From: Opitutales bacterium
GTDB lineage: Bacteria; Verrucomicrobiota; Verrucomicrobiia; Opitutales; Opitutaceae
Assembly (NCBI GenBank): GCA_038249085.1
Contig: JBBRWR010000010.1
Coordinates: 11,009-75,008 of the forward strand
Length of the DNA: 64,000 nucleotides
Direction of reading: 5' to 3'
How positions within the stretch are numbered: position 1 is the stretch's first letter; the number at the start of each line of letters is the position of its first letter. The position numbers and the translations under genes were made by a program. The notes beneath the pieces are model-generated. The model made no database searches and had not been told where the DNA came from. It saw nothing but the letters and a program-made list of their open reading frames with translations. Shown piece after piece: positions 14,894-44,809 of this stretch.

Positions 14894-14943
14894 GATGACC
14901 TGCCTTCGAAGGACGTTCCATCGCTGTTAACGACGCGACTGAA

Positions 14944-15080
14944 GGGTGGGGCGCCGACTCCGTTCCGCGCCGGGAGAAGGGAACGGGGATCGCTACGCCC
15001 GGGCGGCGGTGAAGGGACTCACCGCCCTACCACTAACGAGGTTCGTACGGGTGGGGCGCGGACTCCGTTCCGCGCCGGGG
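14944..15080. repeat. REP-like palindromic repeats, family A (one half unit plus one full unit)
   Basis: GGGTGGGGCGC(C/G)GACTCCGTTCCGCGCCGGG occurs at 14944-14974 and again inside the full unit at 15005-15080. The full unit is GGCGGTGAAGGGACTCACCGCCCTACC...GTACGGGTGGGGCGCGGACTCCGTTCCGCGCCGGGG. Near-identical units lie at 23292-23366 and, inverted, at 26422-26507. Confidence 0.85.
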
Positions 15081-15081
15081 T

Positions 15082-16287
15082 CTACTCCCTCCCGGTCAGC
15101 CTGACCTCGATCCTGCCCTGGTTGCCCGGATCGACGACCCAGCGCACGCCGTCCAGTTCAAACACGAAGGTGCCGGCATCCATGTTGCCATGGCTGATTT
15201 GCGCGGAGCCGCCCTTCACGGCCAGGTACAGTTGCCCCGCGTCGTCCCTGGCCCCGCGGAAGACCGCCACCGGATTCGCGCCCCGGCCGCACCACGCCAG
15301 GGGCAGGACGCTGTTCTGGCGTTCCTCGAATTGACTGAGCCAGACCAGTCCCGGTCCGGCCAGGCGTTCGGCCGCGGCGGGATGTTCGAAGTAAGGCCGA
15401 TCCAGATACAGGCTGTCACCGGTCCGGGCCGCGAACCACGCGAGCAGGGTGGAGGTTTCGCCGTCGGTCCCGCCGTCCGAGTCGGCAAAGTTGAAACACT
15501 CGCCGGAAGGGGCGGTGGTCTGCAGGCGGAAGTTCGCACTCGCCATGAACCCCGGGCTGGCGCTGAGGCCAAAATCGCTTCCGAGGGCGGTCTGCAGCAC
15601 GTTGGCGGCGAGCACGGAAAAGCTGGTGCCGAACCGCCAGTAGCCCGGCCCCTCCGGGTGAGCCCCATCCGGTGCGTATTCCTTGAGTGAATTCGGCAAT
15701 TGCTCGAGCGCGCGGGCGATCGTCCTGGCCGCCAGCTCGGGATCAACCTCGGCGACGGCGAGGGCGGCGGCCACCATGCCGCCATGGCAGACGGAGTTCC
15801 AGTTGTTGTTGCTGCTGATCCACTGCATCCGCTCCCCCTTCACATTGTAGCTCGGGCGGAGGCCTTTCTCGATCAGCGCGGCCTTGGCCCGCCGCACGGT
15901 TTCCGCCGGCAACGCCTCCCCGGTCCAGTCGAGCGCCAGCGCCACGGCGGTCGACATCTGCGACACATCAAGAAAATGCTGGGGATTCCAGTCGGCAAAA
16001 CCGCACACCGCGAGCAGCTCGGCGTTGATGCGGTCCAGGTACCCTTGATCGCGATCGAGACGATAAATCATCGACAGGATCCCCAGGGTCTTCATCGCAC
16101 TGAACGCCACGGGCATCCGGAAGCCCACGAGGACGTGCTGGGCCAACGGTTGCTTCAGGATTTCCGCCGGCGGGGAGGCGGCGATCGGAGGGCCGGCGAC
16201 GGTTCGCACGGTGGCAACGGTCGGAAGGTAGCAGGGCCCGCGCCGGGAAACCAATGTCCCGATGCAGTTTCCCTTGTGGTTTTGCAT
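15082..16287 (-). pseudogene. heparinase II/III-like gene remnant (both ends apparently missing)
   Basis: The central blocks of the family are present (DWNPQHFLDVSQMSTAVALALDW, NNWNSVCHGG, HGNMDAGTFVFELDGVRWVVDPG). There is no signal peptide. The ORF stops right after the start of the C-terminal Hepar_II_III block and directly abuts REP unit 15005-15080. Confidence 0.55.
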
Positions 16288-27247: not shown

Positions 27248-30247
27248 ATGAATACTCCCTCCAACCGTCCCTCCTCCGTGGCCACTGTTCGCGTGGCCAC
27301 TTTCCTCGGCCTCCTGGCCGCCGCGGCAAACTTCCTCTCCGCCGCCACTCCCGACCAGGCCGCCTCCGGGCTCACCGCGACCGGTGAAATCCGCGGCCAG
27401 GTGAGCAATGCCGCGACCGGCGCCTACCTGGAGAATGTCGCGATCAAGGTCCGCGCAACCGGCCGGGAGTACACGACGGAACGCGACGGTTCCTTCGCCA
27501 TCGCCGGCCTGCCCCCGGGCCGGTATGCCTTGGACATCGAATACCCGGGGCTGGATCGGAGGACCGAGGACGTGCAGGTCAGCGGCGGCCAGGTGGCAAA
27601 GTTGGCGGTGGCGCTCACCTCGGATTTGTATGTGATGTCCAAGTACGTCGTCGCCGGGCAGCGCGAGGGCAGCGCGGCGGCAATCTCCGAGCAACGTTAC
27701 GCGCCCAATATTTCCAACATCATCACCGCGGACGCCTTTGGTGACATCACCAAGGCCAATGTCGGCAATCTGCTGCGCCGCATTCCGGGCGTGACCGGCA
27801 TCACCGACGACGAAATCGACACCAGCGTGATTCAGGTGCGCGGCATGGATGCCAGCCTGACCAGCATCGACATCGACGGCACGCGGGCGGCCAGCGCGCT
27901 GAACGGCAGCCGCAAGCAAAACGTGAACGCGATCCCCGTCGACATCATCGAGAAGGTCGAGGTGGCCAAGGCGCCCACGGCGGCGGACGACGCCGATTCG
28001 CTCGGCGGCCGGGTCAAACTCACCACCAAGAGCGCCTTCGACCTCAAGGATCGGTACCTCAACGTGCGGGCGGGTTCCTCCTACAACAAGACCTACGGCA
28101 AGAAGGTCACGGAGGACGGCCAGGACACCCTGCCGGCGAGTGTCGGAGTCATCTATTCGGACGTGTTCGATCTCATGGGCCGGCCGCGCTCCTTCGGGAT
28201 GTTTGTCGCCGCCAACTACGACCGGTTCCTGGACGCGCGCTCTCTCACGCAATTCGGCAATGTCAACGCCACGGGCGGCAGCCCGTCCGCCACCCAGACC
28301 AAGGATTACAGCACGTTCAACTTCACCAGCGACGAGCTGCACCAGCAGAAGCGCATGGGCGGAAGCGTGCGGTTGGAATACAAACTCGCCGACCACACCA
28401 AGCTCGGCGTGTCGGCGCTCTTCAGCCGCTACGTCGACGACTTTGATCGGGCGCGCAACGGCACCAACGGCGCGACGATCGATCTGGCCCTGTCGGATCC
28501 GGATCCCAACTTCACGGTGGTAAACAACGCCTCGTACATGGGGCAGCGGAACCTGCGGGAAAGCCAGACCGACACCATGAACCTGCGCGCGTTCGGCACC
28601 ACGAAGCTGGCCGGCTGCAAGTTCACCTACGATCTGAATTTCCAGCAGGCCCAGAAGTACGAGTTCCGCAATCAGACGCAGTTCATCTCGAACCGGAAAT
28701 TCTCCTACTCCCTGGACTGGCGGCCGGATCCGACGTATCCGTATCCCGTGGTCCGTTCCGGACTGGATCCCTTCACGGATCGTTTCGCCGACACCGCGAG
28801 CACGTCGCTCGAGGTGCGCCGGCAGGCGGTCGACAAGGAAATCTGGGGCAGCCGGTTCGACGTCGAGAAGGCGTACGAGTGGAAATGGCCCCTCAAGCTG
28901 AAGACGGGCCTGCGTTACCGGGACGAGGCGCAGGCGGACGATCAGGACCGGTTCGTGGCCGCCTTGGCGACGGCGGCGGGCCGGAACCTGGGCGCGTATC
29001 TCGACGACAACTGGAAGAACGGCGGCGGGGTCGACCACTACCCGGTCGGCGCGGTGCCCAGCAACCAGAAGGTGCTCGGTTCGAACGTGCAGTTCGTGGG
29101 CGGGGCGGATCCGCGCACGGCGTGGAGCTTCGATCCCCGCGTCATCACGATGAATGCGAGCAGCACGGTGCAAAATTCGCTGCTCAACGATCGCAAGATC
29201 GAGGAGGAGGTTTACGCGGGCTATGTCGAGGGCTCGATGAAGTTCGGGGCGCTGACCGCGCAGGGCGGCGCGCGCTACGAACGCACGGATCTCACCGGCA
29301 CCACCGGGGTGCGCAACCGCGCCGTGAGCGACGTCCTCGCCCAGTTCAACGGCCGGAGCCGCGTCTCCGCCCGTTACGATGACCTCTTCCCCAGCCTGCA
29401 CCTCCGCTACGGCCTCACGGATGCCCTGCTCGTGCGCGCCTCAGTGAGCACCACCATCGGCCGCCCACCCCTCGACACCGTGACGGCCAGCGAGGACGTC
29501 AACCTCTCGTCCCGGGCCATCACCGTCGCCAACCCCGACCTGCAGCCCCAGCGCTCGACCAACTATGACGCCAGCCTCGAGTACTATTTCAGGCCCGTGG
29601 GCGTGGTGTCGGTGGGGGTGTTCCAGAAGGACATCCGCGACTATATCGGCACGGTCTCCACGGTGATCTCGGAGGCGGCGGCCGCCGAATTGGGCGCGCC
29701 GTTGACGAACCCCAATCCCAACACGATGACGTGGACCCTCACCACGGATGAAAACAACGGGACCGCGCGCGTCCGGGGCGTGGAGTTCAATTACTCGCAG
29801 CAATTCGCCTTCCTGCCGGGCGTGTGGCGCGGGCTGGGCGTGTTTGCGAATTACACCTGGCTGCAGTCCTCCGGCACGCGGCAGACGACCAGCGGCGCCC
29901 CGGTGGAGATTCCATTGATCAACTTCATCCCCCGGAGCGGCAATGCCGGGCTCAGCTACACCTACGGGCGGTGGGACGCCCGCCTCCAGGTGAACTACCA
30001 CTCGGATTTCTGCGACGGCTACAACGCGACGAATCCCCGCCTGCGCAACTCCTTCCGGGGGGCGCGTTCGCAGTGGGATTTCAACGGTCGCTGCAAACTC
30101 ACCCGCCAACTCTCGGTGTTTGCGAACCTGAGCAATTTCACCTCGCAGGATGAACCGGATTTCAACGGCTGGGTGGGGCCGACGCGCCGCGACCAGACCA
30201 TCAGTTATTCCTTCATCATCACCGCCGGCGTGAGCGCGTCGTTCTGA
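27248..30247 (+). CDS. TonB-dependent receptor with carboxypeptidase-regulatory-like N-domain
   Basis: 999 aa with a signal peptide. CarbopepD_reg-like segment (GEIRGQVSNAATGAYLENVAIKV...DGSFAIAGLPPGRYAL). Plug block (ITADAFGDITKANVGNLLRRIPGVTG). Barrel ends in ...AGVSASF. Confidence 0.9.
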   Translation: MNTPSNRPSSVATVRVATFLGLLAAAANFLSAATPDQAASGLTATGEIRGQVSNAATGAYLENVAIKVRATGREYTTERDGSFAIAGLPPGRYALDIEYPGLDRRTEDVQVSGGQVAKLAVALTSDLYVMSKYVVAGQREGSAAAISEQRYAPNISNIITADAFGDITKANVGNLLRRIPGVTGITDDEIDTSVIQVRGMDASLTSIDIDGTRAASALNGSRKQNVNAIPVDIIEKVEVAKAPTAADDADSLGGRVKLTTKSAFDLKDRYLNVRAGSSYNKTYGKKVTEDGQDTLPASVGVIYSDVFDLMGRPRSFGMFVAANYDRFLDARSLTQFGNVNATGGSPSATQTKDYSTFNFTSDELHQQKRMGGSVRLEYKLADHTKLGVSALFSRYVDDFDRARNGTNGATIDLALSDPDPNFTVVNNASYMGQRNLRESQTDTMNLRAFGTTKLAGCKFTYDLNFQQAQKYEFRNQTQFISNRKFSYSLDWRPDPTYPYPVVRSGLDPFTDRFADTASTSLEVRRQAVDKEIWGSRFDVEKAYEWKWPLKLKTGLRYRDEAQADDQDRFVAALATAAGRNLGAYLDDNWKNGGGVDHYPVGAVPSNQKVLGSNVQFVGGADPRTAWSFDPRVITMNASSTVQNSLLNDRKIEEEVYAGYVEGSMKFGALTAQGGARYERTDLTGTTGVRNRAVSDVLAQFNGRSRVSARYDDLFPSLHLRYGLTDALLVRASVSTTIGRPPLDTVTASEDVNLSSRAITVANPDLQPQRSTNYDASLEYYFRPVGVVSVGVFQKDIRDYIGTVSTVISEAAAAELGAPLTNPNPNTMTWTLTTDENNGTARVRGVEFNYSQQFAFLPGVWRGLGVFANYTWLQSSGTRQTTSGAPVEIPLINFIPRSGNAGLSYTYGRWDARLQVNYHSDFCDGYNATNPRLRNSFRGARSQWDFNGRCKLTRQLSVFANLSNFTSQDEPDFNGWVGPTRRDQTISYSFIITAGVSASF

Positions 30248-30298
30248 GCGATGGGCGCAGCGATTCTTCCGCGTCGCACGGATTCGTCCTCTATCCGG

Positions 30299-30324
30299 TG
30301 TAGGGCCGCACCTGGGTGCGGGCC
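30299..30324. repeat. single GTAGG-headed hairpin (REP-like, possible terminator of the receptor gene)
   Basis: GTAGGGCCGCACCTGGGTGCGGGCC lies 50 nt after the TGA at 30247. It is an imperfect 8-9-bp GC stem. Confidence 0.5.
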
Positions 30325-30430
30325 TGAAAAGCGGGGCGAGGGTCAGTGCGGGCTTCGCGGCCTGGGCCAAGGTCCGGCCCTGCACGTAGCGCGGGGCGTC
30401 GCCGAGACGTTCCAACGGGTTTGGTCGCGG

Positions 30431-33400
30431 TTGTTCGCCTTCCCGCGGTGGCTTTCCGGTCGACTCCATCCCTGGCTGGCCGCCGGGCTGCTGCTGGGGG
30501 CCACGCCCGCGCCCGCGCCCGGCGCGGCCGTGGCCGGTGGCCTGGTCGGTCATTGGACGTTCGACGATGGCACCGGCCGCGATGCCAGCGGGGCGGGGAA
30601 CGACCTGGTGCCGGGCGCGGCGCAGATTTATCCGCTGGGCCCGGGCCGGGCCTGCCTCCGGCTCAACCCCGACGGGAACGGCGCGACGATTCCGGTGCCG
30701 GCGGGTTCGCCGCTCGCCATCGCCCGCGGAACTTTCTGCTTCTGGCTCAACGTGGGCGTGAAGAGTTCCGGCTCCGTGCTGGAGTTCGACAACCGCGCCG
30801 TTCAGTTGCAGGTGTATCGGAGCCACTTCCAGCCGCGGTTCCGGGGCGAGGGCGATTTCCGCTTCGGCAATGCGCTGCTTGGCCCCGACTGGCCGCGATT
30901 TCTGCTGCGGGAAAGCGCCTTCTACCCCCACGAGCGGGCCGTCACCGGCGAGGGCGAGTGGCATCATTTCGCCGTGGCCTACGACGATCGGGCGAAACAG
31001 ATCACCGGCTGGCGCGACGGCGCGCTGATTTCCGTGGTCGATCTGTCGACGGTGGCGATGGAGCCGTTGCTGCGCGAAGGGTTGAAGGCGATCACCCTCG
31101 GCGAGGGCTTCTCCGGCTTCCTTGACGAGCTCCGCATCTACGATCGGCCCCTGCCCGGCGACGAGGTGCGGCGCCTTTATGCGGCGGAGCGTGCGGCGTT
31201 TGCCGGCCGCCACGATGCGGTGGACGACAGCCGGAAATTGGAGGTTTATTCGTATCAGGAGCAGGACCGCACCCTCTACCGCGCGTGGCTGCAGCACCAA
31301 CCCCTGGCCCGGCCGAAGTCGCGTGAACTTCTCGCGCGCATCGTCGCCGAGGGGACCCACCCCACCGTGCAAAACGCCGCCCGCGAGCTGGCGGCCGCCC
31401 TGCGGGAGATGGTCGGTCCGGCGGAAATTCTCGCGGCGCCGGCTTCCGCCCCGCAGATCATCCTCGGCACGCCCGAGACCTCGGCCTGGATCCGGGCGCA
31501 GGCCGCGGCGCTGGGCCTCGAGGCGATCCGGCACGACGGTTATGTTCTGAAGACACTCGAGGAAAACGGCGCAGCCGTCGTCGTCGTCGCGGCGCGGCAG
31601 CCGGCGGGCGTGGTGTTTGGCGTGTTTGACTTGCTCCGCCGTCTGCAACTCGGCGCCGATCCCGCGCAGCTCGCGGCGGTGGAGAACCCGGGCGTGGCGC
31701 TGCGGATGGTGAACCACTGGGACATCTGGCGCGGCTTCCCGCACGACGACTGGCGCGGCCGGGAACCGGAGCAGGCCGGCGCGGAGGGTAACCGGAGCAA
31801 CTCCCTCTACAGTTGGGACGAACTCCGCCGCGGCGACACCCGCCGGATCCGCGACTGGGCCCGCCTGCTCGCCTCCGCCGGCTGGAACGCCGTGTGCCCG
31901 ACGGAAATCAACTGGGAGTTCCGCAACAACTTTCTCGACCACCTCGACGAGGTGAAGACCCTCGCCGGAATTTTCCGGGAATACGGCCTCACCCTGTACT
32001 GGAGTCCCAATTACCTGCTCGCCCTGCGCCCGGACACCGCGGACCGGCTCTACGCGGCCGTGCCGGATTTCGGCGGGTATCTGCTCAAGCTCGGCTCCGA
32101 GGCGCAGGAGGGCGATCCGCGTCCGCCCATGGTCAATCCCATCGCCGACTGCCTCAAGCCCCACGGCGGCCAGGCGCTCGTCCGCGCCTTCGTCTACGGC
32201 AAGTATCGCTACTCCGCCGACGACATCCGCAGCCTCAATCCCCACGACATCATCGCCCCCGAGGACGGCCGGTACCGCGACAACGTCGTGCTCGTCAGCA
32301 AGGGCAGCCCGCTGGATTGGGATCTGTCGGCGCCCATTCCCGCCCTCGATGGGGCGATCAAGCGAAACCGCTATGGCAGCGAACTCGTGATCGCGAAAAA
32401 CTGGCCGCTTTCGTGGGTGGAGAAATGGAAGTGGTGGCTGGAGCAGGACAACTACGGTCGCGGCCCCGGCAGCCTGAACAAGTTTTCACTGCATTGCCTC
32501 CTCGGCGTCGCGATGATCAATCCCGCCCCGGCGTGGACCACGTGCCCGTTGAACATGGTCAATTATTACGGCCTCGGCCGGCTGGGCTGGAATCCGGATC
32601 TGACCCTGGACGAAATCTACACCGAGTGGATCCGGCTCACCTTCGGCGACGATCCGGAGGTCATGGCCACGATCAAGACGATCCTGCTGCTCTCGGACGA
32701 CGCCACCCGCAAGCTCTACCTGTACCGCGGGTACCGCGGCGTGTGGCTCGACCGCCGCGAATCCCGCGACCTGGTCCAGAAGAAGACTCCCCATGCGATC
32801 ACGCGGGAAGGCCTGGGCATCGCGACCCCGGCGCGGCGGGAGCGCGTGCTGGGCCAGTATGCGCCGGGCCTGCGCGAAATCTACGGCGACCCGCGGCGCG
32901 GCGAGGAGTTCTTCGCCTCGTTCAACTTCGAGTCTCTCGATTACCGGCTGCTCTCCGGCCGGACCGTGATGCAGGATGTCTACGCGAACCTCGACGAAGG
33001 CGTGCAACTGGCCGCCGCCCTGCCGCGGCTGTGGCGCCGGCTGGAGGCGAAGATCGACGGGCGCCGCTTCCAAGCCACCCTCGAGACGCTGGACGAGTTC
33101 GCCCTCACGGCGCAGCAGGAGCGCGACGCCACGGTGAAGAGTTTCGAAGCGGTCACCAAGCGGCCCTACGCCAAGACCATGGCCGGGCTCGCGCCGGCGA
33201 ACCGGGCGGAGTCGCAGCTGTTCAACGTGCGCGATTTCGGCGCCCGGGGCGACGGCACGGGGAATGAGGCTGCAGCGCTCAACGCGGCCATCGAGGCGGC
33301 GCACGCCGCGGGCGGCGGCACGGTGTTGGTGCCCGCCGGCGTCTACGCCACCGGTTCGGTCCGCCTGCAAAGCAACGTGACGCTGGCGCTCGATACCGGC

Positions 33401-34597
33401 GCCGTGCTGCGCGCGCTCGCCGGGGCGATGAATCCCTGGGAGCCGAACCCGCACGATCGGGGACTCATGGACGCCGCCTATTATCACTGGCAGGCTTCGC
33501 TGCTTTGGGGTGAAAACCTTGAGCACGTGAAGATCCTCGGCCCCGGCACGCTGGACGGCGCGGCGCTGACGCGCAGCAGCAAGGTGCCGGCCGGCACCGG
33601 CGACAAGGCCATCGCGCTGAAGCAGTGCCGCGGCGTGGAGATCCGCAACCTGCACATCGAACAGGGCGGCCACTATGCGATCCTCGCCACCGGGTGCCGG
33701 GATGTCGTCATCGACCTGGTGACCATCCACACCGGGCGCGACGGGCTCGACTTGATGCAATGCCGCGATGTCACGGTCTCGAACTGCCACATCGATTGCG
33801 TCCGCCGCGAGGACGGTCGGCCCGCGGGCGGCGACGACGCGATCAAGCTGGGCAGTGATCTATCGCTGGGCGAGGTCCTGCCCAGCGACAACATCACGGT
33901 ACGAAATTGCTTCCTGGCCAGCGGCTGCAACACGCTGCAATTCGGCTCCGAGACCATCGGCGCGTTTCGCAACCTCCGCTTCGAGAATATCCGGATCGTC
34001 GGGGCCGGGAAGGCGGGCATCAGCGTCACCAGCAACGACGGCAGCGTGATTGAGGACGTGTCTTTTCGGGACATCACGATGGAGCAGACCTTCGCCCCCA
34101 TCTTCCTCAAGATCTCCGATGTCGCGCGCGTGCCGGACGGGGCCTACCGGCGCGGATCTATTCGCAAGGTGCGCTTCGAGAACATCACGGCCACCGACTG
34201 CTATTCGGCGATTCGGCGGGCCGGGATGCCCTCCGTGATCTGGGGCAAGCCCGGCAGTCCGATCGAGGACATCGAGTTTCGGAACGTCCGCCTGCTCGTG
34301 AAAGGCGGGCATCCGTCGCAGGAGGCCACCCTGCAGCCCGCCGAGAACGACGCCCGGTTCCCCCGCGACGTCGGGGCGGTGCCGGCCTATGGGTTTTACC
34401 TGCGTCACGTCCGGAACATCAATTTCACCGACTGCGCCCTTGGCTTCGAGCAGGATGACGGCCGACCGGCCCTCGGGGTGGATGATGGCGAGCAGGTCGT
34501 CCTGCGCGGCTGCGAGCTGCAGAACGGGGCCGGGCGTCAATCCCCGGTCGGTGGGCGTGGCGGTTCCGGTGTGTCGATCGGGCCACGGCAGCGATGA
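30431..34597 (+). CDS. multidomain glycosidase: LamG/concanavalin-like + GH67-like (alpha-glucuronidase family) + GH28 (polygalacturonase family)
   Basis: The long ORF is listed from 30251, but its first ~60 codons cover the hairpin at 30299. The TTG at 30431 would give a signal-like N-terminus (..RLHPWLAAGLLLGATPAPAPGAA). LamG blocks: LVGHWTFDDGTG...LDELRIYDRPL. GH67-like blocks: RMVNHWD, RIRDWARLLASAGWN, PDFGGYLLKLGSE, NYYGLGRLGWNPDL, TFGDDPEV. GH28 blocks: NVRDFGARGDGTG, GRDGLDL, DDAIKLGSD. Confidence 0.85.
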   Translation: MFAFPRWLSGRLHPWLAAGLLLGATPAPAPGAAVAGGLVGHWTFDDGTGRDASGAGNDLVPGAAQIYPLGPGRACLRLNPDGNGATIPVPAGSPLAIARGTFCFWLNVGVKSSGSVLEFDNRAVQLQVYRSHFQPRFRGEGDFRFGNALLGPDWPRFLLRESAFYPHERAVTGEGEWHHFAVAYDDRAKQITGWRDGALISVVDLSTVAMEPLLREGLKAITLGEGFSGFLDELRIYDRPLPGDEVRRLYAAERAAFAGRHDAVDDSRKLEVYSYQEQDRTLYRAWLQHQPLARPKSRELLARIVAEGTHPTVQNAARELAAALREMVGPAEILAAPASAPQIILGTPETSAWIRAQAAALGLEAIRHDGYVLKTLEENGAAVVVVAARQPAGVVFGVFDLLRRLQLGADPAQLAAVENPGVALRMVNHWDIWRGFPHDDWRGREPEQAGAEGNRSNSLYSWDELRRGDTRRIRDWARLLASAGWNAVCPTEINWEFRNNFLDHLDEVKTLAGIFREYGLTLYWSPNYLLALRPDTADRLYAAVPDFGGYLLKLGSEAQEGDPRPPMVNPIADCLKPHGGQALVRAFVYGKYRYSADDIRSLNPHDIIAPEDGRYRDNVVLVSKGSPLDWDLSAPIPALDGAIKRNRYGSELVIAKNWPLSWVEKWKWWLEQDNYGRGPGSLNKFSLHCLLGVAMINPAPAWTTCPLNMVNYYGLGRLGWNPDLTLDEIYTEWIRLTFGDDPEVMATIKTILLLSDDATRKLYLYRGYRGVWLDRRESRDLVQKKTPHAITREGLGIATPARRERVLGQYAPGLREIYGDPRRGEEFFASFNFESLDYRLLSGRTVMQDVYANLDEGVQLAAALPRLWRRLEAKIDGRRFQATLETLDEFALTAQQERDATVKSFEAVTKRPYAKTMAGLAPANRAESQLFNVRDFGARGDGTGNEAAALNAAIEAAHAAGGGTVLVPAGVYATGSVRLQSNVTLALDTGAVLRALAGAMNPWEPNPHDRGLMDAAYYHWQASLLWGENLEHVKILGPGTLDGAALTRSSKVPAGTGDKAIALKQCRGVEIRNLHIEQGGHYAILATGCRDVVIDLVTIHTGRDGLDLMQCRDVTVSNCHIDCVRREDGRPAGGDDAIKLGSDLSLGEVLPSDNITVRNCFLASGCNTLQFGSETIGAFRNLRFENIRIVGAGKAGISVTSNDGSVIEDVSFRDITMEQTFAPIFLKISDVARVPDGAYRRGSIRKVRFENITATDCYSAIRRAGMPSVIWGKPGSPIEDIEFRNVRLLVKGGHPSQEATLQPAENDARFPRDVGAVPAYGFYLRHVRNINFTDCALGFEQDDGRPALGVDDGEQVVLRGCELQNGAGRQSPVGGRGGSGVSIGPRQR

Positions 34598-34729: not shown

Positions 34730-37351
34730 ATGTCCAGCCCGCCCTCACTTGCTTCGCCGCCGCCCGCTGCCGAGGAGCATGCCCGCCGGCTGTTGATCCA
34801 GGAAAAGTGGCGGCAGGCGCGCGATGAGCTGAAGCCGCTCGTCAAGGTCGACCGGGTGCGCTTCCTTCCGCTGCTGGTCGAAGCCAACCTCGGCCTGGCC
34901 CGCAAGATGATGGCGGACGGGCAGACGGACGGGGCCCGGCAGGTTCTGAACTATCTCGCGACGCTCGTCCCAAGGGAACAGTTGCGCGCCGTCGAGCTGG
35001 AACTGGCGACCAAGTCCGGGGCGACCGAACAGACGCGGCCGAAGTACGTCGCCGCCCTGGTGGATGCCGGGATCGCGCTCCCCGCCGCGGAGCGCGTGCG
35101 GCTTGCGGATGCGTTGGTGCTGGCGTTTGAACCGGTCGTGCCGGACGACCCGGCGTCGCCGGAGCAGGCCCGGGCGGTCGCGGAAGTGGACGCAGTGCAC
35201 GCGGCCTTGCGGGCGGTCGCGGAGGCGCAGTGGCCGCGGGTGACGGAGCTGCTCCGGCTCGTGCCGCACCGCTCGGTGGTCAGCCACTGGGCCGGGTTCA
35301 TCAAGGGCATCGCGGCGTTTTATGCGGGCGACGCCGCCAGGGCGGCGAAGCTCCTGCGCAACCTGCCGGCGGGTTCGGTACCAGCCCGGGCCGGCGCGGC
35401 TTATCTCCTGCTGGCGGACGAATCCGCCGCTCCACCGGTGATCGCTCCGGTCCTCGAAGCCCTCGGCGGACTGATCGGGGCGGGCGGTGGCGTCGCCAGC
35501 AGTCTGCTGCGCGCGGACCAGCTCTGGCGCCAGGGCAACCACACCGAGTCTTATCGGGTCTTGCGCGAGGCGGTGCCTGCCTTTCCGGGCCCGGGCCTCG
35601 ACTGGATCGGCGGGCTCACGGAGTTCTATTTCAAGTCTCCCCACGGGATGGCGCCGGACGCCGGGAGGCGGGTGGTGATGATGTTCGATCGGCTCTTCTC
35701 CCGGGGGCAGGGCAAGAACGACACCGAGACGATGCTGGCGCACCGGATGTTTTCGCTCGTCGGCAGCGCGATTGGGCGCGGTGAGGACCTGCGCCGGGAC
35801 TGGGCGCGTTTCCTGAACCAGCGCGAATCGATCCACGGCCGGAACCCGCGGCTGGCCTCGCTCGCCTACGGCTGGCTGGGCGAACAGCTCGCGATGACCC
35901 GCCGGGCCCCGGGATTCCATGCGGGTACGCCCACGCTGCGAGACCCGGCGGGGGCGCTCGACGCCTTGCAACGGAGCATCGCGCTCGATCCCACGAACCT
36001 CGCGGCGCACCTGCAGTTGTGCGCCTTGTACGGCGTGTTGAAGAAGACCAGCGAGCGCAACCGGCTGCTCGACGACATGACGGCGCGGTTTCCGGACGAC
36101 AAACAGGTGTTGTTGCAGGCCGCGGCCGGCTGCGTCGACCGGAAGGCCTACGGCAAGGGGCTCGAGTATCTGGATCGGGCGCGGCACGTCGATCCGCTCG
36201 ATCCGCGAATTCCTGAAGCGACCGTCACGGCCTTGCTGCGACAGGCAATGCGGCAGTTCAAGGAGCGGCGTGCCGCCAAGGCGGAACAGACGCTTGCCCG
36301 CGTCGAGGAATTCCAGACCGACAATCCGGAGGATTTTTGCCGCAGCCGCTGGACTTTGCGGCTGCGCCACGGGGTGATGCAGACGATCTGGGGCGAAGCC
36401 GCCCGGGGCGCCGCGCTGCTCGCCGAGGCGGCGGAGCTGGCGCCGAGCCGGATGGCATGGTTGTGGTTCAGCCATCTGGCGCACCGGGTTTGCGCGCAGG
36501 AGTACCGCGGCGAGTCGCCGTTTCTCGCGGAGCTCAAAGCGGTGCTGCGCCGGGCTCCGCGCCTCGGCGAGCTCAGTCTCCCGCTGCGCCTGCTCGCGTA
36601 CTGGCGGCAGGCGCCGGAAAACCCCCGGACGTACGAGGAGGAGCGTCTCCTGGCCGCGGCCATCGAGCGAGCGGTGGGGCAACCCTTCACCCGCGCCGAG
36701 GCGGTCAAGGTGGTCGAAAGCGCACGCGACCATCACGAGTTTGCCAATGCCATCCGAAAACTGGTGAAGAAATTCCTCCGGACCGACCGGCACGATCCGC
36801 GGTTCCGGCTGTGGAGGATCGAATTCGCCAACCCCTTTACCTTCGGGCCGCCCGCCAGCCGCGCGGAGGTGCAGGCGATTCTCGATGAAGCGGGGCGCCG
36901 GCACGATGAGCCGGCAATCCGCGAGGCCCGCCGATTGCTCAGCGACCTCGACCATCCGCCGCCGTCCATACCGGGCCCGTTCGGGCCCTGGTCCGATTTT
37001 GCGGAGGGCCCGGACGACGATGAAGAGGAGGGCTTCGGGCCCGACGACGGGTTGCCGCCGCCGGAGATGACCCCGGAGATGGTCACCCAATTCGCGGAAT
37101 TGTTCGAAGAGCTCCGGGATGCGCCCGATGCCGTCGTGCGGAAACTGCGGCGACAGACCGCCGGGCTGGTCCCGGATGGCCTCTTCGACGCGATGGTGCA
37201 GATGGCCAGGCAAGGCATCATGCCGCCGCGGCCGTCCCCGCGGGCGCAGCCTTCGCTGCCGGCGCCCGGGCCGCCGCCGCCGAAGCCCGCCCCGCGACCA
37301 CCGCCAAAGTCGCTGCCGCCGCCCGACCCGAACCAGTTGAATTTATTCTGA
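34730..37351 (+). CDS. large TPR-like all-helical repeat protein with acidic and proline-rich C-terminal tail
   Basis: ATG at 34730 (the ORF track starts at a TTG at 34694). 873 aa of helical-repeat-like sequence (e.g. ALQRSIALDPTNLAAHLQLCALYGVLKK...YGKGLEYLDRARHVDPLDPRI). Tail: DDDEEEGFGPDD...PPPPKPAPRPPPKSLPPPDP. The stop is 1 nt before the next ATG. Confidence 0.8.
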   Translation: MSSPPSLASPPPAAEEHARRLLIQEKWRQARDELKPLVKVDRVRFLPLLVEANLGLARKMMADGQTDGARQVLNYLATLVPREQLRAVELELATKSGATEQTRPKYVAALVDAGIALPAAERVRLADALVLAFEPVVPDDPASPEQARAVAEVDAVHAALRAVAEAQWPRVTELLRLVPHRSVVSHWAGFIKGIAAFYAGDAARAAKLLRNLPAGSVPARAGAAYLLLADESAAPPVIAPVLEALGGLIGAGGGVASSLLRADQLWRQGNHTESYRVLREAVPAFPGPGLDWIGGLTEFYFKSPHGMAPDAGRRVVMMFDRLFSRGQGKNDTETMLAHRMFSLVGSAIGRGEDLRRDWARFLNQRESIHGRNPRLASLAYGWLGEQLAMTRRAPGFHAGTPTLRDPAGALDALQRSIALDPTNLAAHLQLCALYGVLKKTSERNRLLDDMTARFPDDKQVLLQAAAGCVDRKAYGKGLEYLDRARHVDPLDPRIPEATVTALLRQAMRQFKERRAAKAEQTLARVEEFQTDNPEDFCRSRWTLRLRHGVMQTIWGEAARGAALLAEAAELAPSRMAWLWFSHLAHRVCAQEYRGESPFLAELKAVLRRAPRLGELSLPLRLLAYWRQAPENPRTYEEERLLAAAIERAVGQPFTRAEAVKVVESARDHHEFANAIRKLVKKFLRTDRHDPRFRLWRIEFANPFTFGPPASRAEVQAILDEAGRRHDEPAIREARRLLSDLDHPPPSIPGPFGPWSDFAEGPDDDEEEGFGPDDGLPPPEMTPEMVTQFAELFEELRDAPDAVVRKLRRQTAGLVPDGLFDAMVQMARQGIMPPRPSPRAQPSLPAPGPPPPKPAPRPPPKSLPPPDPNQLNLF

Positions 37352-37352
37352 G

Positions 37353-37658
37353 ATGAACCCCTACGTGATTCTGGGCGTGCCCCGCGAGGCCGCCGATGGC
37401 CGCATCCGCCAAGCCTACCTCGACGCGGTCAAACTCGCCCCGCCCGAAACCCATCCCGTCCGCTTCAAGGCAGTCGCGGCGGCGTATGAGAAAATCAAAG
37501 ACGAAGCGGCCCGCGGCCGGTATGAGCTCTTCGACACCGAGGCGCCGGGCGACTCCCCGCTCGAGGTCTTTCTGCACCACGCGCGCCTGACGGCGCGGCG
37601 GGCGCCGCCCGGCTTCGAAGCCCTGAAGGCGTACCTGCGCACCTGTTCCAAACCGTGA
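37353..37658 (+). CDS. stand-alone J-like domain protein lacking the HPD tripeptide
   Basis: 101 aa. The J-domain helix I-III pattern is present (NPYVILGVPREAADGRIRQAYLDAVKLAPPETHPVRFKAVAAAYEKIKDEAARGRYELFD). There is no G/F region, zinc finger or C-terminal domains. The stop overlaps the next start (GTGA). Confidence 0.8.
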   Translation: MNPYVILGVPREAADGRIRQAYLDAVKLAPPETHPVRFKAVAAAYEKIKDEAARGRYELFDTEAPGDSPLEVFLHHARLTARRAPPGFEALKAYLRTCSKP

Positions 37659-38506
37659 AGCCAACCTCCGACGAATCGCTCCCGCTCTTCAACCTGGACG
37701 CACTCCCGCTCCCGCCGGCGCCCGGCGCTCCGTCCGGCCCCGCGGCCCCGCCCGATGTGGCGCCGCAAATTCCGCCCGGCCCCGCGGCCGAAAGAACGGA
37801 CGCCGCCCCGCCCCGGCCCGACGACGACGCGGAGCTGGTGGACTGGAAGGACGACCTCCGCCGCGACTTCGAGGTCTGGCTGGCGTCAATCGACGAAATC
37901 TCCGCACCGCCGGAGGACCCGGGCGACGCCGCCAGCGATCCGCCCGATCTTTACTCGTTCTACGAACAACTGGCCGCGGCCAGCGCCGAGTCGCGCAAGG
38001 CGAACCGCCGCACCGCCGAAGCCATGAGTCAGTGGGGCGAGACGCTGGCGCGCTTCGAGAACGGCTTGCAGCCGCTGCGTGAAGCTGCGGCGCAACTCAC
38101 CGCCGCCCAGCCGGTGGCGGGCCGGATGGCGCGCGCCCATTGTCTCATTCTCGTGGAACTGCTCGACCGCATGCACCGCCTGGCCGGCGCCTTCGCGTCG
38201 CCGCCCGCGGCGAAACGCGCCTGGTGGGGCGCGGCGGTCGACCGCGCGTGGCGGCAATCGTGGGAAGCGCAACACCAGGCCCTCGACATTCTCGTGGGCC
38301 ACGTCGAGGCGCTGCTGGCCCGGGAGGGGGTCAGCCGCATCGCCACCGCGGAGCAGCCCTTCGATCCCGCCTTCATGCTGGCCGTCGCCGCCGAACCCGA
38401 TGCCACCCGGCCGCCCCAAACGGTCGTGGCGGAAGTCGCGGCCGGTTTCCTGCGCGACGGTGAGCTCCTCCGCGCCGCCCAAGTCAAGGTCACCCGCCAG
38501 GTTTGA
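37655..38506 (+). CDS. GrpE-like nucleotide exchange factor with long Pro-rich N-terminal extension
   Basis: GTG start overlaps the upstream stop. GrpE-type blocks: LILVELLDRMHRLAGAF and LLAREGVSRIATAEQPFDPAFMLAVAAEPD...VVAEVAAGFLRDGELLRAAQVKV. Confidence 0.75.
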   Translation: MKPTSDESLPLFNLDALPLPPAPGAPSGPAAPPDVAPQIPPGPAAERTDAAPPRPDDDAELVDWKDDLRRDFEVWLASIDEISAPPEDPGDAASDPPDLYSFYEQLAAASAESRKANRRTAEAMSQWGETLARFENGLQPLREAAAQLTAAQPVAGRMARAHCLILVELLDRMHRLAGAFASPPAAKRAWWGAAVDRAWRQSWEAQHQALDILVGHVEALLAREGVSRIATAEQPFDPAFMLAVAAEPDATRPPQTVVAEVAAGFLRDGELLRAAQVKVTRQV

Positions 38507-38514
38507 GCGAAACG

Positions 38515-38569
38515 GTCTTCTCTCGTCTTCACTTTTCCTCTCACTCTCACTCTCACTTCCCCTTCCTCC
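38515..38569 (+). promoter_or_regulatory. polypyrimidine (CT-rich) leader directly upstream of the Hsp70 ATG
   Basis: GTCTTCTCTCGTCTTCACTTTTCCTCTCACTCTCACTCTCACTTCCCCTTCCTCC-ATG. It has three tandem CTCTCA units, locally low GC, and no GGAGG-type Shine-Dalgarno (it ends in CCTCC). Function unknown. Confidence 0.3.
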
Positions 38570-40342
<1,773 letters not shown>

Positions 40343-40345
40343 CCA

Positions 40346-40648
40346 GTGCCGATCGTCTGCCCCGCCTGCAACAAGGCCAGCCAGACCGCCGCCGCGTGCC
40401 AGCGCTGCGGCTGCGATCTCACGAGGCTGCAGGAGATTGTCGCCACCGCCGGGGCGCTCCGGGGCGCCGCGGTCGCTGCCCTGGCCGACCGCGACTGGTC
40501 GGCGGCGCAGGCCGCGGCCGGGCGCTCATGGCAGTTGTGTCACCGCGTGGAGTCCGCGCGGGTCGCGTTCCTGGCCGCCGCCGCCGCCGGTGAGACGGCG
40601 CAGGCGTTGCGCTGGCGGGAACGGGCGGGGAATGCCGGCAGTGAGTGA
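40346..40648 (+). CDS. small zinc-ribbon protein with helical-hairpin C-terminal part
   Basis: GTG start 3 nt after the Hsp70 stop, with a GGAGG 8 nt upstream. CPAC-x9-CQRC motif at the N-terminus. GC3-rich codons. The 3' end overlaps the recQ start by 17 nt. Confidence 0.6.
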   Translation: MPIVCPACNKASQTAAACQRCGCDLTRLQEIVATAGALRGAAVAALADRDWSAAQAAAGRSWQLCHRVESARVAFLAAAAAGETAQALRWRERAGNAGSE

Positions 40649-42614
40649 ATCTCCCCCCAACCCGGCCGATCCTGCCCGCGCCCTCCTGCGCGAGCGCTTC
40701 GGCTTTGAGAGTTTCCGACCGGGGCAGGAGGCCGTGATCGGGCACCTGCTGGCGGGGCGTTCGGCACTGGCGGTGTTTCCCACCGGGAGCGGCAAGAGCC
40801 TCTGCTTTCAGCTCCCGGCGCTCCTCCTGCCCGGGCTCACGGTCGTGGTCTCGCCGCTGATCGCGTTGATGAAGGATCAAACCGATTTCCTGCAGGCGCG
40901 GGGGATCGCGGCGGCGCGGCTCGATTCGAGTGTGAGCCGCGAGGAGTACACCGGCATCCAGGACGCGCTGCGCGCCGGCCGCCTGAAGATCCTGTATGTG
41001 GCGCCGGAGCGTTTCTCCAACGAACGGTTTCTCGCGCGATTAAAGACACTGACGATCGACCTGCTGGTGATCGACGAGGCGCACTGCATCTCCGAATGGG
41101 GCCACAACTTCCGCCCCGACTATCTGAAGCTGGCGCGCTTCTCCCGCGACTTGCGGGTGGGGCGGGTCCTGGCGTTGACCGCGACCGCCACTCCGGGCGT
41201 GGCGCAGGATATCTGCCGTGAGTTCGCCATTACCCCCGCAGCGCACGTGCACACCGGGTTCTACCGGCCCAATCTTCACTTGCGCGCGACCGCCTGTGCG
41301 CCCGGGGAGCGCCTGCGCGTGCTCATCGAGCGGCTGCAGGTCGGGCCGCCGGGGCCGACCATTGTCTATGTGACGCTGCAGAAGACCGCCGAGGCGGTGG
41401 CGGCAGCGCTCGCGCAGGCGGGCTTTGCCGCCGAGGCCTACCACGCGGGCATGGAATCGGAAACGCGCGAAGCGGTGCAGAATCGCTTCATGGCCTCGGA
41501 CGACGCGATCGTGGTTGCGACGATCGCGTTCGGGATGGGCATCGACAAGGCAAACATCCGCGCGGTGTACCACTACAACCTGCCGAAGAGCCTCGAAAAC
41601 TACGCGCAGGAAATCGGCCGGGCCGGGCGCGACGGGGCGCCCTCGCACTGCGAGATGCTCGCGGCGGCGGAGGATCTCACCGTGCTGGAAAACTTCACCT
41701 ACGGCGACACGCCCACGCCGGAGGCCTTGCGGGATCTGCTCAAGGAGCTGTTGGAAGCGCGGACGGTTGGGCAGGTCTTCGACGTTTCCATGTACGAATT
41801 GTCGGCGCGCCACGACCTCCGCCAGTTGGTTGTGTCGACCGCCCTCACCTATCTCGAGCTCGATGGACTGATCGCGGCGACGGCGCCGTTCTACACGACC
41901 TACCAGTGGAAGTTACTGCGCCCGGTGGAGGAGATCCTCGGGCGCTTCGACGCGGCGCGGCGGGAGTTTCTCGAACGTCTCTTCGGGCTCGCGAAGGTGG
42001 GCCCGGTCTGGAATTCGGTGGTCATGGCGGAAGCGGCGGCGGCGTTGGGGGGCGAACGCGAGCGCATGGTGAAGGCGCTGAATTACCTCGAAGAGCAGGG
42101 CGACCTCGCCCTGCAGGTCGCCGGCGTGCGCCAGGGCTATCGCGTGCTCCGGGTGCCGGACGACCTGGCGGCGGAGTGGCGGGAGCTGCGCCGGCGCTTC
42201 GCGGCGCGCGAGCGCAGCGACATCGTGCGCGTGCAAAGGGTCGCCGAGTTGGCGGGTGGCGAAGGCTGCCTTGTACGGCGGCTGCTCGGCTACTTCGGCG
42301 AGGAACTCGGGCGCGAATGCGGCCATTGCGGGCGCTGCGCCGGCGACCCACCAGCGCGGCTGGAGCGCGCGCCGGTCGCCTTCGCGTTGCCGGCCGGCGA
42401 ACTGGAGGCGTTGCGCACCGCGCACCCCCGCGCGCTCGGAGGACCGCGACAGGTGGCGCGGTTTCTCTGCGGCCTCAACTCGCCGGCGCTGTCGGCGGCG
42501 AAGCTCACCCGGCATCCGCGGTTTGGCGGTCTGGCGGAGATTCCCTTCGCCCAGGTAATCGCAGCGGTGAAGCCGGCGCCGCCGGTCGACCCGGAGCCGG
42601 CGCCGGAAGAGTGA
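40632..42614 (+). CDS. recQ: RecQ-family ATP-dependent DNA helicase
   Basis: The ATG at 40632 gives ...LLRERFGFESFRPGQEAVI..., a typical RecQ N-terminus. Walker A is FPTGSGKSL and the DEAH box is VIDEAHCISEWGHNFRPDY. Other blocks are LALTATAT and QEIGRAGRDG. The Zn-binding block is CLVRRLLGYFGEE...CGHCGRC. The longer ORF from 40221 is an out-of-frame overlap with Hsp70. Confidence 0.9.
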   Translation: MPAVSESPPNPADPARALLRERFGFESFRPGQEAVIGHLLAGRSALAVFPTGSGKSLCFQLPALLLPGLTVVVSPLIALMKDQTDFLQARGIAAARLDSSVSREEYTGIQDALRAGRLKILYVAPERFSNERFLARLKTLTIDLLVIDEAHCISEWGHNFRPDYLKLARFSRDLRVGRVLALTATATPGVAQDICREFAITPAAHVHTGFYRPNLHLRATACAPGERLRVLIERLQVGPPGPTIVYVTLQKTAEAVAAALAQAGFAAEAYHAGMESETREAVQNRFMASDDAIVVATIAFGMGIDKANIRAVYHYNLPKSLENYAQEIGRAGRDGAPSHCEMLAAAEDLTVLENFTYGDTPTPEALRDLLKELLEARTVGQVFDVSMYELSARHDLRQLVVSTALTYLELDGLIAATAPFYTTYQWKLLRPVEEILGRFDAARREFLERLFGLAKVGPVWNSVVMAEAAAALGGERERMVKALNYLEEQGDLALQVAGVRQGYRVLRVPDDLAAEWRELRRRFAARERSDIVRVQRVAELAGGEGCLVRRLLGYFGEELGRECGHCGRCAGDPPARLERAPVAFALPAGELEALRTAHPRALGGPRQVARFLCGLNSPALSAAKLTRHPRFGGLAEIPFAQVIAAVKPAPPVDPEPAPEE

Positions 42615-42898: not shown

Positions 42899-43171
42899 AT
42901 GCCACACGATACCAACGCCGCGGCCGTTGATGGCAGTCTGCTGGAATCGGCCGCGCTCTGCTTGGATGTTGCCAGCGTCAGGGCATTGGGCGGCCTCAAA
43001 CTCGACGTGACGGCACAGGCCCGGCTCGACGAACTCGCACGCAAGGCGAACGAGGGGCAACTCGCCGCCCAGGAGGCGGCAGAATACGACCGCTTCATCG
43101 AATTGAGCGACATCCTGGCGACGCTGCGATTGAAGGCTGAACGGCAGTTCAGCGCCGCGGCGGGTCGATGA
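42899..43171 (+). CDS. small helical protein paired with the downstream HNH nuclease (putative partner/antitoxin-like)
   Basis: 90-aa ORF whose stop overlaps the HNH start (ATGA). It has a helical, Glu/Ala-rich C-terminal half (ARLDELARKANEGQLAAQEAAEYDRFIEL). Confidence 0.55.
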   Translation: MPHDTNAAAVDGSLLESAALCLDVASVRALGGLKLDVTAQARLDELARKANEGQLAAQEAAEYDRFIELSDILATLRLKAERQFSAAAGR

Positions 43172-43566
43172 GCGGGAGGGGGCGGCACTCGGTGCAGGAA
43201 CGGGCCGCGGGGCGATGCGAATATTGCCGGCTGCCGGACTTCCGACCGCCGCTGGAGGATTTTCACCTGGAGCATATTGTCGCGCGGCAACACGGCGGCG
43301 GGACCACCAGCGAGAACCTTGCTTGGGCGTGCCACCGGTGCAATCGCCACAAGGGCACCAATCTGACCGGCATCGATCCGGCCACGCGCGAAGTCGTGGC
43401 GCTCTACCATCCGCGTCGCGACATTTGGCACGAGCACTTCACCGTCGAGGACGTTCGTTTGCGCGGACTCCCGGCCACCGGACGGGCGACCGTTTGGTTG
43501 TTGCAGAGGAATGCCCAGCGACGACTGGAACGGCGGGCGGAACTTATGCTGCGTGGCTGGTATTAA
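43168..43566 (+). CDS. HNH endonuclease
   Basis: 132 aa with CEYCRLP...HLEHIVARQHGGGTTSENLAWACHRCNRHKG (HNH/zinc-finger signature). Confidence 0.85.
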   Translation: MSGRGRHSVQERAAGRCEYCRLPDFRPPLEDFHLEHIVARQHGGGTTSENLAWACHRCNRHKGTNLTGIDPATREVVALYHPRRDIWHEHFTVEDVRLRGLPATGRATVWLLQRNAQRRLERRAELMLRGWY

Positions 43567-44165: not shown

Positions 44166-44576
44166 TTACCAAATTGTCCTGAAGCCGCGCACGCCGACGA
44201 GATCGTGCATCTTCTCGTCGATGGTGAGCAGCGGCAGCCGGTGTTCGACCGCGGTGGCGACGATGTGACGGTCGCATGGATCGCGGTGGGGCCGGCCGGC
44301 CGTAGTCCAGTCGAGATAGGCGGCGCGGAGGGCAATTTTTCGCGTGACTGGGAGTACTTCCATGTACGCGGTGGCGTTTGCGAGCCATTGGCCCGGCGCC
44401 ATCGGGGTAATGATGGCGCCACTGGCCAGATGGCGGGAGAGTTCGGCCAGAGTAACATCGGAAATCGCGAGTTCACCGGGCCCGGCAGCCGCCAGGATTT
44501 CGAGCGCTTTGACCGACAGCCGGGGATCGCGGTGTGCGGCCCAATCGACGACGTGGGTGTCCAGAAGATACTTCAC
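44166..44576 (-). CDS. vapC: PIN-domain toxin (VapC family)
   Basis: 136 aa. N-terminal MKYLLDTHVVDW (PIN acidic residue), plus ...DRHIVATAVEHRLPLLTIDEKM. The GTG start overlaps the upstream antitoxin stop. Confidence 0.85.
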   Translation of the reverse strand: MKYLLDTHVVDWAAHRDPRLSVKALEILAAAGPGELAISDVTLAELSRHLASGAIITPMAPGQWLANATAYMEVLPVTRKIALRAAYLDWTTAGRPHRDPCDRHIVATAVEHRLPLLTIDEKMHDLVGVRGFRTIW

Positions 44577-44809
44577 TTCTTCAGCCTATCCCACGCGTCC
44601 TCATCGAAGGCGGGCTTGGCCGGGTCGTAGGTCGAGGGCTTCCAACCGTCCTGGCGACAGGCGCCCAGCAGCCAGCCGCGTCCATCGGCGGGAAAGTCCT
44701 TTTCGACCGTGGTCCGTACGAGTTCGGACACCGAGACCTTGCGCTGGCGGGCGGCGCGGGCGAGGCGCCGCTTGAAATCGGGAGACACTTTGAGGGTCAG
44801 GGTCGGCAT
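44573..44809 (-). CDS. antitoxin of the VapBC-type pair (RHH/CopG-like N-terminus)
   Basis: 78 aa. MPTLTLKVSPDFKRRLARAARQRKVSVSELVRTTVEK resembles a ribbon-helix-helix. There is a 4-nt overlap with the PIN gene. Confidence 0.7.
   Translation of the reverse strand: MPTLTLKVSPDFKRRLARAARQRKVSVSELVRTTVEKDFPADGRGWLLGACRQDGWKPSTYDPAKPAFDEDAWDRLKK

Follow-up and report, generated by a model that had tools for sequence, protein, structure and literature searches.

A conserved HscC-type Hsp70 module of Verrucomicrobiota with a putative sliding-clamp-binding motif on its scaffold protein

A specialised Hsp70 module of four to five genes is conserved in the sampled orders of Verrucomicrobiota. We describe it here starting from a window of 64,000 nucleotides, i.e. 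the whole stretch of DNA that was analysed, on the contig JBBRWR010000010.1 of an Opitutales bacterium. The module encodes a large TPR-like scaffold, a mini J protein, a GrpE-like protein, an Hsp70 and, in most lineages, a Zn-ribbon protein. In the window a gene for a RecQ-family helicase comes next, and it lies outside the conserved unit. We hold with high confidence that the module is specialised and conserved, and that neither RecQ nor a defence function is a part of it. Our analysis suggests that the Hsp70 and the J protein belong to the type known from HscC of Escherichia coli, and that the scaffold ends in a peptide matching the consensus for binding the beta sliding clamp DnaN. We give an even chance to the view that these genes encode a self-contained and vertically inherited HscC-type Hsp70 machine, which its scaffold targets to the sliding clamp.

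Gene order and distribution of the module

We collected 39 loci in a scan with one genome per species, and determined the gene content of loci L001-L042 by tblastn with the six window proteins, taking 10 kb to either side on each contig as the neighbourhood; three low-GC loci (L044, L046 and L047) came in addition. The scaffold, J, GrpE-like and Hsp70 genes have the same order and strand in every contig that is long enough, about 33 of L001-L042, and such a recurrence in all the related loci is more than chance. The GrpE-like gene was found behind the J gene in 31 loci. At least 21 loci, and the low-GC loci L044 and L046 as well, have a homologue of the Zn-ribbon gene immediately behind that for the Hsp70. 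It is absent from the Verrucomicrobiales/Terrimicrobiaceae group (L028-L038), and is the fifth gene of the module in most lineages. Even the three divergent low-GC members, on contigs of 33-49% GC, retain the five-gene order, the fifth gene of L047 being truncated by the contig end. One irregular locus is L003, where the Hsp70 gene (13781-15552) is split into a 429-aa open reading frame (ORF) and out-of-frame fragments, as in a frameshifted pseudogene or an assembly error.

The loci come from Opitutales, Pedosphaerales/Limisphaerales, Chthoniobacterales/Spartobacteria/Terrimicrobiaceae and Verrucomicrobiales (Prosthecobacter, Haloferula and Akkermansiaceae), and a few of the 39 are from metagenome-assembled genomes with another taxonomic label. 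An earlier note on this DNA had named a recurrence in distinct genera as a support for its reading; the module does recur there, and among orders and classes as well. Close homologues of the scaffold number 58, of which nearly all carry the label Verrucomicrobiota, and an exhaustive profile search extended the scaffold family to 395 clusters at 50% identity (E<=1e-30). From Opitutales to Verrucomicrobiales the identity drops in parallel for all core proteins (that of the Hsp70, for instance, goes from 87% down to 51%), and this tracking of taxonomic distance is the pattern expected of vertical inheritance.

The chaperone proteins and their relation to HscC

The Hsp70 retains intact motifs in its nucleotide-binding domain (NBD), including the Arg equivalent to R167 of DnaK, and differs from housekeeping DnaK in a characteristic set of insertions and deletions. 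We read these from an alignment of nine family members with DnaK, HscA and HscC of E. coli. The family shares with E. coli HscC two deletions in the NBD (24 aa and 4 aa), a deletion of 10 aa in the lid, and the C-terminal end point, with no disordered tail behind it. All nine members also have an insertion of 7-9 aa in loop L1,2 of the beta part of the substrate-binding domain (SBD), in the same place as HscC. The hallmarks of HscC given in PMC8215388 are an insertion of 4-8 aa in this very loop, for which Kluck 2002 is cited there, and the loss of some nine residues from lid helix B; the NBD of the class also has deletions relative to DnaK. By the shared indels, which match these hallmarks, we assign the Hsp70 to the HscC type. 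Overall identity does not separate the classes, being 35% to HscC, 37% to DnaK and 34% to HscA in a single alignment. The protein ends in FYLED (40325-40339), a C-terminus found in 108 of 120 orthologues, for which the name used at NCBI is 'Hsp70 family protein'. Between SBD-beta and the lid (aa ~487-520, 40028-40129) about 20-60 aa of acidic, low-complexity sequence are inserted. This variable insertion is seen also in L001, L029 and L037, is longest in Verrucomicrobiales, and is absent from DnaK, HscA and HscC of E. coli.

An Hsp70, a J domain and a GrpE homologue encoded together might also be an ordinary housekeeping grpE-dnaK-dnaJ locus, which we regard as highly improbable here. The Hsp70 failed both DnaK equivalog models (NF001413, 471.6 bits vs the cut-off of 648; TIGR02350, 469.5 vs 822.55) and carries the HscC-type indels, the GrpE-like protein scores far under the GrpE equivalogs, and the J protein has neither the His of the HPD motif nor the G/F region, zinc finger and client-binding domains, which are absent by Pfam and by sequence. 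The module does hold a complete Hsp70 cycle set as DnaK-DnaJ-GrpE does, i.e. an Hsp70, a J domain and a nucleotide exchange factor (NEF) of the GrpE fold, but it has no class A/B DnaJ, another gene order and an added scaffold gene. No second Hsp70 is encoded within the 64-kb window, and a canonical dnaK/dnaJ/grpE set is to be expected elsewhere in the genome.

The J protein passes the Pfam DnaJ cut-off (31.6 bits vs 27.8), its AlphaFold2 model has a predicted local distance difference test (pLDDT) score of 82.6, and its Foldseek matches are exclusively J domains. The helices at 3-7, 15-28, 35-48 and 51-60 make up the four-helix J fold, and two extra helices follow at the C-terminus. At the position of HPD stands PPE (aa 30-32, 37440-37448), which hhalign places opposite the HPD of DnaJ. 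The pattern [P/T/S]P[D/E] fills this site in all the members examined from our loci and in 57 of 62 database homologues, and no conserved His was found near it in either set. The J protein has no hydrophobic anchor, and its length among the members is 99 to 116 aa. It resembles DjlB and DjlC, the HPE J proteins that are partners of HscC: the J domain of DjlC is 42% identical to the window protein, without a gap, over helices I-III, and the short loop xPETxP between helices II and III is common to the window protein (PPETHP) and to DjlB/DjlC (HPETDP). From these features we place the J protein in the DjlB/DjlC (HPE) lineage, with the His replaced.

For the GrpE-like protein, the Pfam GrpE model was passed (53 bits vs 25.8) and all the NCBIfam GrpE equivalog models were failed by far, which makes it a GrpE paralogue. 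It aligns with E. coli GrpE along the long helix and the beta domain, and its N-terminus is disordered and rich in Pro and acidic residues. We considered SLPLF in this N-terminus as a second short motif and rejected it, since only two or three sequences have it. One would not expect a NEF of the module's own, since both HscA and HscC have been described as needing none; that the module always encodes a GrpE paralogue argues against NEF independence here. The Zn-ribbon protein consists of CPxC...CxRCxC followed by a helical, Trp-containing region.

E. coli HscC (Hsc62) is the closest known system, likewise specialised and non-housekeeping. Its locus (ybeQ-ybeR-djlB-ybeT-ybeU-djlC-hscC) encodes Sel1 repeat proteins, which are TPR-like and in this resemble the TPR scaffold. 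The module differs from it in having its own GrpE paralogue, one giant solenoid with a clamp-type motif and a Zn-ribbon protein, and in being conserved in the sampled orders of one phylum whereas HscC is sporadic. Its J protein is soluble and short (101 aa) against the 475-483 aa of the tail-anchored DjlB and DjlC, and the HPE of these has become [P/T/S]P[D/E], the short loop and the P-E being common. HscA-HscB, acting in Fe-S assembly, is another specialised Hsp70 with a dedicated J protein for a defined partner; however, the module's Hsp70 failed the HscA equivalog (404.9 vs 708.55), the J profile gave no match to HscB, and there is no isc context at the module. These data support the earlier note's idea that the Hsp70 machine is a dedicated one outside housekeeping, and that it is coupled to a TPR scaffold and to a J protein without HPD. 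Its remark that it knew of no characterised system with this composition needs correction for the Hsp70 and the J protein, which are of the HscC and DjlB-DjlC type; the full composition, with its own GrpE, a scaffold with a clamp-type motif and a Zn-ribbon protein, we did not find described in our literature search.

The scaffold protein and the sliding clamp

The AlphaFold2 model of the scaffold (mean pLDDT 86.9) is a TPR-type alpha-solenoid over aa 12-741, followed by an acidic disordered linker (742-781), a three-helix minidomain (782-827) and a Pro-rich disordered tail (828-873). Pfam gives only a weak match to TPR_19, and it is the model and its structural matches to TPR superhelices that bear out the TPR-like nature proposed earlier. 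As a guide to function the Foldseek search against PDB gave no lead, its matches being generic TPR superhelices (TTC7B, Ctr9, Ski3 and Naa15) with TM scores of 0.15-0.3. The linker (36953-37072) is an acidic, aromatic-rich disordered stretch present in all the scaffolds examined, e.g. PWSDFAEGPDDDEEEGFG; the scaffold of L046, which has no QxxLF tail, ends in such a stretch, FENFFDDDDDFY. These acidic stretches recall the acidic tails of the SSB type.

The scaffold of the window ends in the pentapeptide QLNLF, and our data indicate that a terminal motif of this kind is conserved in the family. We took the last 30 residues of the 173 family members of at least 700 aa and compared them with shuffled tails. 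Qxx[LMIFV][FLYW] occurs in 132 of the 173 members, against 2.9% of the shuffled tails. It forms the exact C-terminus in 100 of the 132; the other 32 have 1-16 residues behind it, and hence the Phe need not bear a free carboxylate. The stricter QL[SDNE]LF was found in 52 members and nowhere else in those proteins. The logo of the tail reads P-D-P-N-Q-[L/M/P/G]-[D/N/E]-L-F, and in divergent members a Lys-rich sequence replaces the Pro-rich spacer and the DPN flank while the QL[D/N]LF core is kept. Motifs of similar form occur in the E. coli K-12 locus (L048), where ybeR (4712-5419) and ybeU (7509-8216), directly upstream of djlB and djlC, respectively, encode DUF1266 proteins. Their products start with MDMESQKILF and MNKEEQYLLF, so that Qxx[LI]F begins at residue 6 as an echo of the scaffold motif; this could be due to chance, or the residues could be part of a folded helix. 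A kinship of the scaffold itself to proteins of that locus was looked for by hhalign against DjlC and YbeR, with no relationship found.

The consensus for binding the beta clamp is QL[S/D]LF, with variation tolerated and a usual place in flexible termini, and the clamp motif of UmuC is QLNLF, the same as that of the window scaffold (PMC3716654, PMC6511837). Since the conserved terminal motif matches this consensus, we infer that the scaffold may bind DnaN, and we put the chance that its tail docks on the clamp at about one half. Pol II, Pol IV, UmuC, Hda and MutS/MutL carry the same Q-L-[S/D/N]-L-F motif on a flexible terminus; unlike these, the predicted clamp binder here is the TPR scaffold of a chaperone module and not a DNA enzyme. 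Our literature search turned up no chaperone component with a clamp-type motif.

We propose tentatively that the Hsp70 machine, tethered to the clamp through the scaffold motif, is an ATP-driven remodeller or unloader of clamp-bound complexes, which would give the HscC class a DNA-linked role. The scaffold would be the targeting subunit, its QL[D/N]LF tail entering the peptide cleft of DnaN and thus bringing the machine to DNA-loaded clamps. The mini J protein might bind the scaffold by its two extra helices and trigger ATP hydrolysis by its cognate Hsp70, which the GrpE paralogue would then reset. The Lys/Arg/Pro-rich spacer just before the motif could plausibly serve an HscC-type SBD as a handle, because E. 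coli HscC prefers positively charged peptides (PMC8215388). Likely clients would be clamp-bound proteins or the clamp itself, with remodelling or release at sites of replication or repair.

Several points weigh against this proposal. The proposed clamp binding is a prediction from the identity and the conservation of the motif. About a quarter of the members are without it, and while some of these are fragments, the scaffolds of L046 and L047 are intact and yet have other tails. The second position of the motif is frequently taken by P or G, a less canonical choice. Clustering of the flanking ORFs showed no replication gene consistently linked to the module. A mutation of the His in HPD has abolished the function of the J protein in every system tested, and by analogy the His-less J protein may regulate the Hsp70 rather than stimulate it.

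The tail, being flexible and having a hydrophobic motif with basic flanks, might just as well be a substrate of the Hsp70, and we take this as the main alternative. In such a scheme the solenoid protein would itself be the client or would form assemblies. The J protein would recruit the Hsp70 to the tail as a tethered substrate, and the Hsp70 would disassemble or activate scaffold oligomers, in parallel to Hsc70 and auxilin, which act on the clathrin heavy chain at QLMLT in its flexible C-terminal tail. The Leu/Phe core with its basic flanks resembles the DnaK rule and would suit the liking of HscC for positive charge, and a J protein without a client-binding domain, in a self-contained module with variable flanks, fits the scheme too. 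We nevertheless consider it unlikely. A Gln that hardly varies and an acidic or polar residue at position 3 mark clamp-binding motifs and not Hsp70 sites, and acidic residues disfavour binding by DnaK (PMC8215388). Many variants, such as QGKLF and QPELF, have just two hydrophobic residues, and the evidence holds no support for an oligomerisation of the scaffold.

The module could instead be a proteostasis system for unrelated clients, for instance in the envelope or the membrane, with the TPR scaffold as an adaptor and the motif binding another partner such as a TPR groove (its own or that of the Zn-ribbon protein) or another hub. Envelope or membrane protein clients have been proposed for HscC-DjlB/C of E. 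coli. The homology to HscC and DjlC, the Sel1/TPR-like proteins of the E. coli locus and the retention of the module in members without the QxxLF tail all agree with this, and an invariant FYLED beside a TPR partner recalls the docking of the EEVD at the C-terminus of Hsp70 onto TPR proteins. However, in the alignment FYLED coincides with the last lid helix at its end, where HscC ends too, and does not form a free tail; we rejected it as an EEVD-like tail and keep it as a minor possibility. The J protein and the scaffold have no evident membrane anchor or signal peptide, as judged with no transmembrane or signal-peptide predictor run, and the motif equals the well-defined consensus of a different and universal partner. 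A role of this sort is in our view rather improbable, and we give it the same low weight as the tethered substrate.

RecQ, the flanking genes and the significance of the module

The six genes in the window are co-directional and closely packed, and both our reading of the sequence and the Pfam/NCBIfam scans confirmed them as listed in Table 1.

Table 1. Genes and features of the module and its downstream flank in the window
Feature	Position	Strand	Description
TPR-like scaffold gene	34730..37351	+	873 aa; product identical to one database protein
QLNLF pentapeptide	37334..37348	+	scaffold aa 869-873; protein end ...PPPDPNQLNLF
Mini J gene	37353..37658	+	101 aa; Pfam DnaJ 1.8e-7
GrpE-like gene	37655..38506	+	283 aa; Pfam GrpE 4e-14
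Hsp70 gene	38570..40342	+	590 aa; Pfam HSP70 1.8e-135
Zn-ribbon gene	40346..40648	+	100 aa; matches no Pfam family
RecQ-family helicase gene	40632..42614	+	660 aa; DEAD, Helicase_C, RecQ_Zn_bind
90-aa ORF, then HNH gene	42899-43566	+	ORF without family match overlaps the HNH start by 4 nt
PIN (VapC-like) and RHH antitoxin pair	44166-44809	-	VapBC-like

The junctions are as the earlier note had described them. The scaffold and J genes are separated by 1 nt (ttcTGAgATG, 37349-37355), and the J and GrpE-like genes overlap by the 4 nt GTGA (37655-37658). A CT-rich spacer of 63 nt (38507-38569) precedes the Hsp70 gene, whose TGA (40340-40342) is followed by cca and by the GTG of the Zn-ribbon gene at 40346, a GGAGG (40333-40337) lying within the final Hsp70 codons. 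The Zn-ribbon and RecQ genes overlap by 17 nt (40632-40648). The 63-nt spacer has tctc and cactct repeats and is without a Shine-Dalgarno-like purine run; its length is very variable among the loci, from 12 to about 95 nt. A terminator scan gave no terminator-like site on the + strand at any of the junctions of the operon, its sole + strand site being inside the J gene.

RecQ is probably co-transcribed with the module in this genome, but it is a lineage-specific neighbour or a local acquisition. The earlier note had taken the six genes for an Hsp70 machine hard-wired to a helicase, which might serve helicase loading or activation or, within a conflict islet, act as a switch triggered by stress or phage. 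We regard a six-gene system of this kind as very doubtful, even with the 17-nt overlap, no terminator between the Zn-ribbon and RecQ genes here, RecQ orthologues within 10 kb in three further loci, and the HNH and PIN/RHH genes that follow. The neighbourhood table largely refutes it: of about 34 loci, four (the window, L007, L024 and L029) have RecQ at a distance of up to 10 kb from the module and about 30 do not, and outside the window it takes three arrangements. Three genes separate it from the module in L007, it is convergent in L024, and it is upstream and divergent in L029. Our clustering of the flanking ORFs found RecQ to be the only recurrent neighbour family, the other flanks being variable, and its recurrence is suggestive and statistically marginal, as two of the four loci share ancestry and about 5000 gene families could recur by chance. 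The marginal value left after multiple testing and shared synteny also counts against the clamp proposal, to which the four loci, together with the UV sensitivity reported for an E. coli hscC deletion, lend weak context.

The helicase itself passed TIGR00614 recQ_fam (384 bits vs 219.8) and failed the recQ equivalog TIGR01389 (432.8 vs 640.2), and is hence a RecQ-family paralogue; the Pfam and NCBIfam scans detected no HRDC domain in it. Its zinc-binding match at aa 526-569 lies about 170 residues past Helicase_C instead of directly behind it, which is a non-canonical C-terminal architecture. Of the three genes inserted in L007 (8282-10649, Opitutus sp. GAS368), the first, a DUF7309/DUF6930 gene, is 7 nt past the Zn-ribbon gene on the same strand, and the other two are on the opposite strand, one of them with a LexA-type DNA-binding domain.

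We reject the module as a defence system. PADLOC gave no match for the five core proteins and only generic helicase matches for RecQ, a tblastn search with the scaffold found nothing in plasmids or phages, and the flanks vary among the loci. The islet of an HNH pair and VapBC that had been taken as a conflict-system context is in part correct, as there is a VapBC-like pair of PIN and RHH genes and a single HNH gene (43168-43566) instead of an HNH pair. By our clustering of flanking ORFs these genes stand beside no other copy of the module and are specific to the window.

The genes upstream of the module are unrelated and belong to polysaccharide utilisation: a TonB-dependent receptor, a GH67/GH28 protein, GH3, GH106, a sulfatase and an MFS transporter. 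The GH67/GH28 protein (30251-34597, + strand, 1448 aa) joins Laminin_G_3 and the complete set of three GH67 domains to a beta-helix of the GH28/pectate-lyase kind. For a fusion of two types of glycoside hydrolase it is unusually large, and it adjoins the TonB-dependent receptor (27248-30247).

Of the three classes of bacterial Hsp70, that of HscC is the one understood least. The module gives this class a concrete candidate partner, DnaN, which can be tested cheaply. If the prediction is true, this would be the first chaperone system recruited through the clamp-binding code, and also a natural case for studying the way in which a J domain without the His drives, or restrains, its Hsp70. Even without clamp binding, our analysis defines a large uncharacterised family, with its 395 clusters at 50% identity (E<=1e-30).

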